Shown here: positions 13,351 to 18,402 of the stretch, in pieces
How positions within the stretch are numbered: position 1 is the stretch's first letter
Layout of the letters: the number at the start of each line of letters is the position of its first letter
Assembly: GCA_005882045.1 (NCBI GenBank)
Contig: VBHO01000145.1
Location: 66,038 to 123,309 of the forward strand
Source of the DNA: Chloroflexota bacterium
Lineage (GTDB): Bacteria; Chloroflexota; Dormibacteria; CF-121
DNA: 57,272 nucleotides
Direction of reading: 5' to 3'
Notes under the pieces: model-generated
The model's input: only the letters and a program-made list of their open reading frames with translations
What the model was told of the DNA's origin: nothing
The model's database searches: none
Position numbers and translations under genes: made by a program

Positions 13351-16300
13351 CTATCGCATGAATCGCCGCAGAATGTCTCGGGGTCGCAGCAGAGCGAGTC
13401 CGACCATCGCCAGGAGCGCTCCCAGCAGCCCTTCGCCGCCAGCCGCCGGACCGGCGCCGGTGTTAGCCAGCGTCCCGGCCGCAGCGCCAGCGCCACTCGT
13501 CCCAGCCCCGGCACCAGCCGCACCGGCGGCACCTGAGCTGGCGGCGGCACCGGAAGTACCAGTTTCTTGCCCGGCCGTACCCTGGGAAACACCCGATCCC
13601 TGGACGTCCGAGACGCCCGTCTCATTGCCCACGGTCCCCATGCTCCCGCCGGTCCCTTGGACATCGGAGATGCCGGTTTCGTTCCCGACCGTGCCCATGC
13701 TGCCGCCGGTGCCTTGCACATCGGAGATGCCGGTCTCGTTACCAACCGTACCCATGCTCCCGCCGGTGCCTTGGACATCCGAGATACCGGTCTCGTTGCC
13801 GACCGTGCCCATGCTGCCGCCGGTACCCTGCACGTCCGAGATCCCGGTTTCATTACCGACCGTTCCGGTCGAGCCGCCAGTACCCTGCACGTCCGAGATC
13901 CCGGTCTCATTGCCAACGGTTCCGGTCGAGCCGCTGCTGCCCTGAACATCGGAGATGCCGGTTTCGTTGCCGACAGTCCCCATGCTTCCGCTGCTGCCCT
14001 GGACGTCGGAGATGCCGGTCTCGTTGCCGACGGTTCCGGTCGAGCCGCTGCTGCCCTGCACATCCGAGATGCCGGTTTCGTTGCCGACCGTTCCGGTCGA
14101 GCCGCTGCTGCCCTGAACGTCCGAGATCCCGGTCTCATTGCCGACGGTTCCGGTCGAGCCGCTGCTGCCCTGGACATCTGAGATACCGGTCTCGGCGCCC
14201 GCCGTACCGGTGCTGCCGCCCGAGCCCTGAACATCCGATTGACCGGTCTCAGCGCCCGCCGTACCGGTGCTTCCCGATGATCCCTGAACATCGGAGATAC
14301 CCGTCTCGGCGCCTGCCGTGCCTGTGCTGCCGGCGGAACCCTGGACATCCGACTGACCCGTTTCAGCGCCAGCCGTACCAGTGCTTCCGGATGAGCCTTG
14401 AACATCGGAGATTCCCGTCTCGGCGCCCGCTGTGCCCGTGCTGCCGGCTGAACCCTGGACATCCGATTGTCCGGTTTCACCTGCGGCCGTGCCTTCGCTT
14501 CCGGAGGAACCCTGCACATCTGAGATACCCGTCTCGTTTCCGACGGTCCCGACGCTGCCAGCCGAACCCTGCACATCAGAGCCGCCCGTCTCGGCGCCCG
14601 CGGTGCCCGTGCTGCCGCTCGAGCCCTGCACATCCGAGATGCCGGTCTCGTTGCCGACCGTACCCGTGCTCCCGCTCGAACCCTGGACATCGGAGATGCC
14701 GGTCTCGGCGCCCGCGGTGCCGGTGCTACCGCCCGAACCCTGGACATCGGAGATGCCAGTCTCATTGCCGACGGTCCCGACGCTGCCCGACGAACCCTGC
14801 ACGTCGGAGCCGCCGGTCTCAGCGCCCGCCGTACCCGTACTGCCGCTAGATCCCTGGACGTCCGAGATGCCGGTTTCGGCGCCCGCCGTCCCAACGCTGC
14901 CGGCCGAGCCCTGGAAATCGGACTGCCCTGTCTCAGCGCCCGCGGTACCCGTGCTGCCGCTGGAGCCCTGGACATCCGAGATGCCGGTCTCATTGCCGAC
15001 CGTGCCTGTGCTGCCGCTCGAGCCCTGCACATCGGAGATGCCGGTCTCATTGCCGACGGTCCCGACGCTCCCGGCCGAGCCCTGCACATCGGAGCCGCCC
15101 GTCTCGGCGCCCGCGGTGCCCGTGCTACCGCTCGAACCCTGGACATCGGAGATGCCCGTCTCGGCGCCCGCTGTCCCGACGCTCCCGCCCGAACCCTGGA
15201 AATCAGACTGACCCGTCTCGGCGCCCGCGGTACCGGTGCTGCCGCTCGAACCCTGGACATCGGAGATGCCGGTCTCATTGCCGACCGTGCCGGTGCTGCC
15301 ACTCGATCCTTGCACGTCCGAGATGCCGGTCTCATTGCCAACAGTCCCTACGCTGCCGCTCGAGCCCTGAACATCGGAGCCGCCCGTCTCAGCGCCGGCT
15401 GTGCCCGTGCTGCCGGTGGAGCCCTGGACATCCGATTGTCCGGTTTCGCCTGCAGCAGTGCCCTCACTGCCACTCGAGCCCTGCACATCGGAGCTGCCCG
15501 ATTCCTCACCCGCGGTCCCCTGGCTGCCACTCGAGCCTTGCACATCGGAACCGCCAGATTCGCCACCTGCGGTCCCGACGCTGCCACTCGAGCCCTGAAC
15601 ATCGGAGCCGCCGCTCTCGGCGCCCGCCGTGCCCGTGCTGCCGCTCGAGCCCTGGTTGTCGGAGATACCGGTCTCCGCGCCGGCAGTACCCATGCTGCCA
15701 GCCGATCCTTGATTGTCGGAGACGCCGGTCTCGGCGCCCGCGGTGCCCTGGCTGCCGGCCGAACCCTGATTGTCAGAGATGCCAGTCTCGGCGCCCGCCG
15801 TCCCGACGCTGCCGGCCGAGCCCTGGAAATCAGACTGGCCGGATTCAGCGCCGGCGGTACCCGTGCTACCGCTGGAGCCTTGAACATCTGAGATGCCGGT
15901 TTCGTTGCCGACCGTTCCCTGGCTGCCCGACGATCCCTGGACATCCGAGATGCCGGTCTCGTTGCCAACCGTTCCGACGCTACCGGTCGAGCCCTGAACA
16001 TCGGAGCCGCCGCTCTCGGCGCCCGCCGTGCCCGTGCTGCCGCTCGAGCCCTGGTTGTCGGAGATACCGGTCTCCGCGCCGGCAGTACCCATGCTGCCAG
16101 CCGATCCTTGATTGTCGGAGACGCCGGTCTCGGCGCCCGCGGTGCCCTGGCTGCCGGCCGAACCCTGATTGTCAGAGATGCCAGTCTCGGCGCCCGCCGT
16201 CCCGACGCTGCCGGCCGAGCCCTGGAAATCAGACTGGCCGGATTCAGCGCCGGCGGTACCCGTGCTACCGCTGGAGCCTTGAACATCTGAGATGCCGGTT

Positions 16301-18372: not shown

Positions 18373-18402
18373 AGCGTACGCCGAATTGCTGAGTGGTGTC
18401 AA
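18373..18402 (-). promoter_or_regulatory. putative promoter of the giant repeat gene
   Basis: Minus strand reads TTGACA, 18 nt, TACGCT, preceded by an AT-rich stretch (ATTATCACGTTATTTAACGC). Confidence 0.45.

Follow-up and report, generated by a model that had tools for sequence, protein, structure and literature searches.

The locus described here raises the question of what a soil bacterium makes with a gene that is, for most of its length, one 19-residue unit repeated 76 times. The gene lies in a window of 57,272 nucleotides (the whole stretch of DNA analysed), positions 66,038 to 123,309 of contig VBHO01000145.1 in assembly GCA_005882045.1, and its 1645-residue product, hereafter the repeat protein, carries a hydrophobic helix near its start and a motif of the kind read by sortases near its end. 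We propose, with a probability of roughly 0.55, that in the Dormibacterota cell envelope it forms an acidic fibril or stalk, hydrated, extended and anchored to the wall. Judged by its sequence, it belongs to a previously undescribed Dormibacterota family in which hypervariable repeats of low complexity lie between a putative N-terminal export module and an LAxTG signal.

When the translation is parsed on its invariant Ser-Asp dipeptide, residues 164-1607 of the open reading frame 13351..18402 resolve into 76 units spaced by exactly 19 residues with no indels, and Tandem Repeats Finder reports the matching period of 57 bp together with higher-order periods of 114, 171 and 399 bp. The unit consensus is G-T-[AV]-G-[AN]-E-T-G-[IQ]-S-D-V-Q-G-S-[SAGT]-G-S-[TQVM]. 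Seven positions (G1, T2, E6, G8, S10, D11 and G14) are the same in every unit, five more are nearly invariant (G4 in 72/76, Q13, S15, G17 in 75/76, and S18), and positions 3, 5, 9, 12, 16 and 19 vary, the last of these being Thr in 27 units, Gln in 19, Val in 17 and Met in 11. There is covariation within the unit, Val3 always occurring with Asn5 (26/26) and Ala3 mostly with Ala5. The 1444 residues of the array include 400 Gly, 270 Ser, 188 Thr, 79 Glu and 76 Asp, only three Pro, and no Lys or Arg; the net charge is -155, or about 0.11 charges per residue, and the array is therefore clearly anionic but not densely charged. An earlier, sequence-only reading had described about 76 head-to-tail units with a consensus that agrees with our per-position profile, and a polyanion of about -150 with essentially no basic residue; each of these claims holds, with the proviso that the charge density is modest.

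An array of this kind might be an artefact of assembly or a repeat that codes for nothing. Short-read assemblies usually break at such repeats, and the copy number differs between assemblies, always in whole units (76 in the window, 69 in contig L007 and 73 in L004, where L numbers denote the contigs and loci used for comparison). We nevertheless regard this explanation as scarcely credible. The kinase-like protein encoded next to the repeat genes recurs at 100% identity on seven other metagenome contigs, and three independent contigs of the same species, from other samples, reproduce the array at 99.3-99.8% nucleotide identity with a single block difference: L007 is 99.8% identical over 4491 nt, its sole internal difference being one 399-bp (seven-unit) deletion (a gap of 48 nt adjoins an N run in the scaffold at the gene's 3' end), and over the 3' 2.6-2.7 kb of the gene L008 aligns without a gap at 99.8% and L009 at 99.3%. 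A related species (L004, VBFR01000220.1, a GTDB representative metagenome-assembled genome) carries a complete 1580-residue orthologue with its own LANTG. As many as 70 of the 76 nucleotide units are distinct, with a mean pairwise identity of 70%, and the frame stays open for about 4.9 kb between N- and C-terminal signals that are typical of the family and in frame at both ends. The array is reproducible and is not an assembly artefact; the 399-bp difference in L007 reflects either population polymorphism or assembly collapse.

The pattern of substitution speaks to the same point, and a ratio of nonsynonymous to synonymous divergence (dN/dS) of 0.15 between units and 0.09 between orthologues identifies the gene as real and functional. 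Between units within the window the proportion of synonymous differences (pS) is 0.63 and that of nonsynonymous differences (pN) 0.18, with dS about 1.37; silent sites are nearly saturated, and the invariant Gly positions draw on all four codons. Against the L004 orthologue all three regions compared have dN/dS below 0.2, the array giving 0.094 (dS 1.09) and the N-terminal region 0.168; for the kinase-like neighbour the values are 0.076 and 1.13. A strictly collinear relationship between the two arrays, differing by whole-unit indels, was considered and was overturned by unit-by-unit nucleotide matching, which recovers positional orthology only at the two array ends. The middle of the array has been rebuilt by block duplications, and the between-species dS of the array is therefore partly paralogous; the conclusion of a low array dN/dS holds because it is also seen between units within one genome. 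Turnover of units is thus combined with strong purifying selection on their amino-acid sequence.

With regard to the gene model, the ORF finder recovered an open reading frame at 13351..18402 on the reverse strand whose translation agrees with the earlier description, and we consider the GTG at 18288 to be the likely true start. An appropriately placed GGAGGG precedes it, the tandem paralogue described below has a similar GGGAGGG-type ribosome-binding site ahead of a TTG start, the gene call on L007 uses the identical start, and the L004 open reading frame is headed by the corresponding GTG. Just beyond the stop codon, a terminator-like hairpin with a U-run is supported by direct RNA folding (-30.7 kcal/mol, z=-3.5 relative to shuffled sequences); it went undetected in a simple consensus terminator scan.

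The two ends of the protein are what define its family. The acidic N-terminal segment may be read as the n-region of a long signal peptide, in which L19, S21 and W25 are nearly invariant in the family alignment (A4), and it is followed by a hydrophobic helix that AlphaFold2 predicts at residues 25-43 (predicted local distance difference test, pLDDT, 88 for the block), in keeping with the signal or anchor helix of the sequence-only reading. Among 63 family sequences L38, G41 and R42 are invariant and A44 and S45 nearly so, and the AAS/GG that follows the Arg-flanked 13-residue core is a probable signal-peptidase site. Beyond it lies a conserved N-terminal module, presumably extracellular, for which AlphaFold2 gave no predicted fold (pLDDT 52-69). 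At the other end the LAxTG, hydrophobic helix and basic tail noted in that reading form a genuine tripartite signal. LA[NQT]TG is kept in nine complete or near-complete family members, including the paralogue and the members in L001, L003, L004 and P0113 (P numbers denote family proteins), and in most members its spacing from the helix is the canonical one; members throughout the family share the tail pattern (R/K)P.x.L.RRF.R.

Searched against a database of 5.8 billion sequences, a profile built on the N-terminal module brought up first 65 and later 101 proteins, with E-values down to ~1e-63, and the repeat protein carries the module consensus of alignment A4, ..EVLIS[KR]S.W.L[KR]LSG......GR.AS.G...W.P..H..PL.V. 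With the exception of one stray match, none of the 101 entries has a Pfam domain. In other species both termini are conserved but the repeat units have a wholly different sequence, period and charge, and the repeat region ranges from about 60 residues (P0063, a complete protein of 209 residues ending in LAQTG) to about 1450. Variable repeats between conserved termini would be the pattern expected of a spacer or stalk set between sorting modules. None of the entries exceeds 358 residues, and most of those inspected stop within the repeats and are fragments. We note that long antisense open reading frames with high third-position GC content run across both repeat genes of the window (11581..12795 and 14432..15211, both on the forward strand), and that at 8852..10564 (reverse strand) of L003 a public gene caller annotated antisense frames in place of the real, frameshifted gene. 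Antisense miscalling of this sort probably contributes to the absence of full-length family members among the database matches.

Where the sources of these proteins are named, they are mostly metagenome-assembled genomes of Candidatus Dormibacteraeota, Dormibacter or, under an older label, Chloroflexi. Two outliers, P0049 and P0122, bear the labels Candidatus Eisenbacteria and Limnocylindrales, probably through an error of binning or labelling, since every other match with a named source is of the Dormibacterota type. The GC content of the window (~65%) is consistent with the 66.9% of published Dormibacteria genomes from soil (PMC10608941). The host is a member of the Dormibacterota and not of the Actinobacteria, and the high-GC Gram-positive context assumed in the sequence-only reading was to that extent wrong in detail.

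How, then, might such a protein be used? We suggest that the long, family-specific signal peptide (acidic n-region, 13-residue core, AAS/GG) would direct export by Sec, that the C-terminal LANTG, hydrophobic helix and basic tail would then retain the protein in the membrane, and that a class E-type sortase would cut after the Thr and link it to peptidoglycan, LAxTG being the class E sortase motif (PMC5148588). The mature product would have about 1565 residues, a mass of about 140 kDa and an isoelectric point near 4, and would consist almost entirely of the 76 acidic units. The stalk formed by these units would be flexible and drawn out, not globular, and its invariant Ser and Thr residues would probably carry modifications; it would bind counter-cations and water, with the small N-terminal module displayed at its outer end. 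Several lines of support may be offered. One is the conservation of the termini in members whose repeats have nothing in common, which is suggestive of a spacer. Another is that nine units modelled in their native context are predicted to be coil, and that the mean hydropathy of the array is 0.443, to be set against the Uversky boundary of 0.452. A further one is a wall-building context, as the window also encodes an LCP (LytR-CpsA-Psr) glycopolymer transferase and a class A penicillin-binding protein; in Actinomyces oris an LCP enzyme glycosylates the LAxTG-anchored protein GspA before anchoring (PMC6381275), which offers a precedent.

Several observations weigh against this picture, some bearing on the anchor and others on the conformation of the stalk. 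As to the anchor, a motif scan, together with Pfam scans covering about 45 genes of the window and the six loci L001-L006, turned up neither a sortase domain nor a TLxTC motif; the curated anchor models TIGR01167 LPXTG_anchor and PF00746 do not match the repeat protein (for TIGR01167 the paralogue scores 10.7 and P0063 15.4, with a cut-off of 15.9), and its C-terminal 99 residues have no Pfam match at E<=10. A subgroup of short, complete members (P0090, P0100, P0101, P0102 and one at 10001..10840 of L011) has FARTE, FGRTE or LGRAE in place of LAxTG and retains the helix and a KPWRFLRRFIR tail. A literature search on Dormibacterota together with sortase or cell envelope returned nothing relevant, direct observations of the envelope type included. 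The protein might escape sortase altogether and be kept in the membrane by its C-terminal helix, perhaps with an uncleaved N-terminal helix as well, forming a loop or brush that is tethered to the membrane and lies beneath the wall or inside it; or else an unknown sorting enzyme might read the conserved C-terminus. The missing sortase, the sub-threshold anchor models and the subgroup without LAxTG would all be accommodated in this way, as would the fact that the N-terminal helix and the ..RP.x.L.RRF.R tail are far better conserved than ordinary signal peptides or sortase tails. We consider it unlikely, given that LA[NQT]TG is present at the canonical helix distance in most members, and that the Arg-flanked core, at 13 residues, is on the short side for a stable membrane anchor and has a small-x-small site after it. 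Housekeeping sortases, moreover, are often unlinked to their substrates. A rhomboid gene of the window (2607..3272), tried as a candidate rhombosortase and rejected, scores 37.9 relative to a TIGR03902 cut-off of 84 and is therefore a generic rhomboid.

As to conformation, invariance at specific positions next to saturated silent sites is unusual for a purely disordered spacer, and better fits a defined fold or a motif recognised by an enzyme. The chief competitor of a flexible stalk is accordingly a genuine beta-solenoid or beta-roll, in which each 19-residue unit makes one turn of a rigid, wall-anchored anionic rod of about 36 nm (76 x 0.48 nm), with invariant Gly at the turns, ladders of Ser, Thr and Gln, and rows of Glu6 and Asp11 that bind cations. 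A solenoid had been put forward in the sequence-only reading, and prediction treats it unevenly. Given twelve units and an alignment of rows taken from elsewhere in the array, AlphaFold2 built a strictly periodic model in which each unit has one strand of seven and one of four residues (pLDDT 58.7, predicted template modelling score 0.53), and the Foldseek neighbours of that model are all parallel beta-helices, none of them significant (no PDB match at E<0.2). When the input was the native N-terminus with nine units and the alignment that of the actual family, only the signal helix was predicted, and the repeats were coil at a pLDDT of about 42. AlphaFold2 is known to over-predict solenoids for repeat proteins, mucins included (PMC11795689).

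What keeps the solenoid alive is the strong position-specific constraint: seven positions are invariant and all three turn glycines (G4, G14 and G17) are conserved or nearly so despite a dS of about 1.4, Val3 and Asn5 occur together, and the array has a dN/dS as low as that of the kinase-like neighbour. Set against this, the hydrophobic positions of the unit are the variable ones, Ile9 and Val12 would presumably face opposite sides of a strand, and other family members carry unrelated units and periods. On balance we see the solenoid as possible, though doubtful. A broader suggestion, that the unit is a new sequence-constrained element serving either as a cation- or water-ordering beta-solenoid or as a scaffold modified unit by unit, we regard as rather improbable; such modification could be glycosylation or phosphorylation, for instance by the syntenic LxmK/APH-like kinase.

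Is the unit, alternatively, related to something already described? The sequence-only reading placed it in no known family, and our searches agree: a profile built from blocks of three units had three matches among 1.84 billion representative proteins, two of them orthologous fragments and one spurious. Pfam and NCBIfam scans of the repeat protein returned only sub-threshold or compositional matches to collagen, Scl and Lcl models, and a PDB sequence-profile search found only one chance match and, by composition, the Nsp1 FG repeats (E=0.004). Collagen-like phage tail-fibre proteins with G-X-Y repeats, which came up in a whole-protein search of the 5.8-billion-sequence database, were rejected as compositional matches.

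The same reading had likened the unit to ice-nucleation proteins (INPs; the InaZ family of Pseudomonas, Pantoea and relatives), and an INP-like, water-organising array must be weighed on that account. INPs, too, have tens of short Gly/Ser/Thr-rich units, the repeat number is comparable, and the string GS-T-G-T-A-G does occur in units with Thr at position 19; the relative abundance of Dormibacterota has in addition been reported to rise in cold soils (PMC10608941). The likeness did not survive comparison. INP models have no match in the repeat protein at E<=10, and the unit aligns to the 48-residue INP super-repeat no better than its own shuffled versions do (z=1.6, with 7.8% of residue-shuffled units reaching the observed score). 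The period is 19 residues and not the 16 of the INP repeat AGYGSTxTAxxxSxLx, and the TxT ladder envisaged for the array hinges on position 19, which is mostly not Thr, so that T-G-T is present in about a third of the units. INPs are outer-membrane proteins of Gammaproteobacteria, and the contigs of this and related species come from metagenome assemblies of no established sample climate. We conclude from these comparisons that the resemblance is compositional and the protein no relative of the INPs, and we consider an INP-like function most improbable.

Other known systems are instructive in different respects. Collagen-like proteins (Scl1/Scl2, Lcl) supply the only curated-model matches (NF038329, NF046116 and PF01391), each unit holding four G-X-Y triplets, but in every unit seven residues interrupt the triplets, and Pro is almost absent; the NCBIfam models score 100 with a cut-off of 325 (NF038329) and 78 with a cut-off of 500, and PF01391 Collagen reaches 27.8 bits for a threshold of 27.2, yet no single matched stretch passes alone. 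The ice-binding adhesin of Marinomonas has in its region IV a calcium-bound beta-helix of 19-residue period, which like RTX beta-rolls is Gly-rich with spaced acidic residues. Its consensus is xGTGNDxuxuGGxuxGxux, with which our unit does not align by eye; no chain of the Marinomonas or RTX type was among the PDB profile matches, and neither GGxGxD nor xGTGND was found on comparing the motifs by eye. Class E (SrtE/SrtA) substrates, such as the Streptomyces chaplins ChpA-C and A. oris GspA, share the C-terminal LAxTG, hydrophobic helix and basic tail; they have no sequence homology to the repeat protein and come from another phylum, whereas the present family has an N-terminal module of its own and a cytoplasmic tail that is unusually well conserved. 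Comparable to the stalk proposed here are Clf/Sdr and serine-rich repeat glycoproteins of the Firmicutes, sorting-signal proteins with a long, acidic, Ser-rich stalk of low complexity. These are sortase-anchored, the stalk spans the wall, and residues are kept by selection as glycosylation sites. Their repeats, however, are dipeptides or short and irregular, and their N-terminal adhesin domain is folded; here the unit is a strict 19-mer, accompanied by an unfolded-looking module of about 80 residues as the sole further conserved extracellular part.

The locus has the order gltX, C1 peptidase, beta-propeller lipoprotein, the two family genes, APH/LxmK-like kinase, DEAD helicase and transketolase, and is syntenic in L001, L003, L004, L007 and L012 (coordinates in Table 1). 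The second family gene is a tandem paralogue with 52% identity to the repeat protein in the N-terminal module and with 21-residue, His-containing repeats unrelated to the 19-residue unit; syntenic paralogues exist in L001, L003 and L004. On contigs of the same species the paralogue is shorter, by 63 + 66 bp in L008 and by 246 bp in L009, which reflects either population copy-number variation or assembly collapse. The kinase-like protein, whose L003 orthologue falls in the APH family and which is weakly similar to the class V lanthipeptide kinase LxmK, could act on Ser or Thr residues of the repeat proteins. The locus of P0090, a third family member from elsewhere in the genome that also contains L001 (GCA_030157145.1), is without a kinase-like neighbour. 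Further away in the window, a short S26-type peptidase adjacent to a nickel superoxide dismutase gene is probably the maturation protease of that enzyme, and a glycoside hydrolase frame may be a truncated gene or pseudogene.

Table 1. Features of the repeat-protein gene, its product and its surroundings (window coordinates).
Feature	Coordinates	Strand	Remarks
Repeat-protein coding sequence	13351..18288	-	1645 aa; GTG start at 18288, stop 13351-13353; open reading frame list and translation
Ribosome-binding site GGAGGG	18297..18302	-	8-nt spacer to GTG; direct sequence reading
Putative signal-peptide n-region, acidic	18217..18288	-	VADTTLGISAPTSDDGEVLISRST; family alignment A4
Hydrophobic helix	18160..18216	-	WSLRLSGLLFAGLLVVGRA; 13-residue core flanked by Arg, then AAS/GG
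Conserved N-terminal module and short linker	17914..18159	-	W..P..H..PL.V...P.P..PK....SK.SAA.EV..F.PG
Tandem array	13582..17913	-	76 units of 19 aa (57 bp)
Ala/Gly-rich linker	13471..13581	-	Array to sorting motif; translation
LANTG pentapeptide, class E sortase-type LAxTG	13456..13470	-	34 residues before stop
C-terminal hydrophobic helix and basic tail	13354..13431	-	GLLGALLAMVGLALL, tail RPRDILRRFMR; translation
Terminator-like hairpin and U-run	13300..13343	-	RNA fold
Tandem paralogue	11451..13127	-	558 aa; same N-terminal module, 21-aa GSGHGSAAGTAAGASNTSAAQ repeats, Thr/Ser/Ala/Glu-rich region, LANTG, helix, basic tail
Kinase-like protein	10005..11360	-	451 aa; 90 bp downstream of paralogue; syntenic in all locus copies
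YncE-like beta-propeller lipoprotein	18471..19466	+	Divergently adjoins the repeat-protein gene; conserved in locus across species
Papain-family C1 peptidase	19470..20315	-	Beside propeller gene; conserved in locus across species
Nickel superoxide dismutase with adjacent S26-type peptidase	21700..22502		
LCP glycopolymer transferase	23546..24559	-	About 5 kb from locus; near locus in L001 too
Glycoside hydrolase family 1 frame	36650..37513	+	Covers profile positions 4-249 of 453
rve-family transposase/integrase (insertion sequence element)	43563..44756	+	
Class A penicillin-binding protein	54321..56603		

The architecture of signal peptide, low-complexity repeats and sorting signal is a known one; what is new is the family defined by the N-terminal module, the 19-residue unit, and the phylum in which they occur. 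Dormibacterota are abundant but uncultured soil bacteria, and to our knowledge nothing is known experimentally of their cell surface. The repeat protein is a first concrete candidate in this phylum both for a major component of the surface that is anchored to the wall and for anchoring of the sortase type. It also points to a blind spot of the databases, from which the family is effectively absent in full-length form as short-read contigs break in the repeats; the array has neither Lys nor Arg and therefore no tryptic sites, so that standard proteomics would miss it as well. For a low-complexity domain it is unusual to combine a strict 19-residue register with polar residues that never vary and silent sites that are saturated. 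If the unit were indeed a solenoid turn or a modified scaffold, these bacteria would carry a regular anionic rod on their surface, one that in dry or cold soils may have a part in mineral or cation binding, in hydration or in freezing behaviour.

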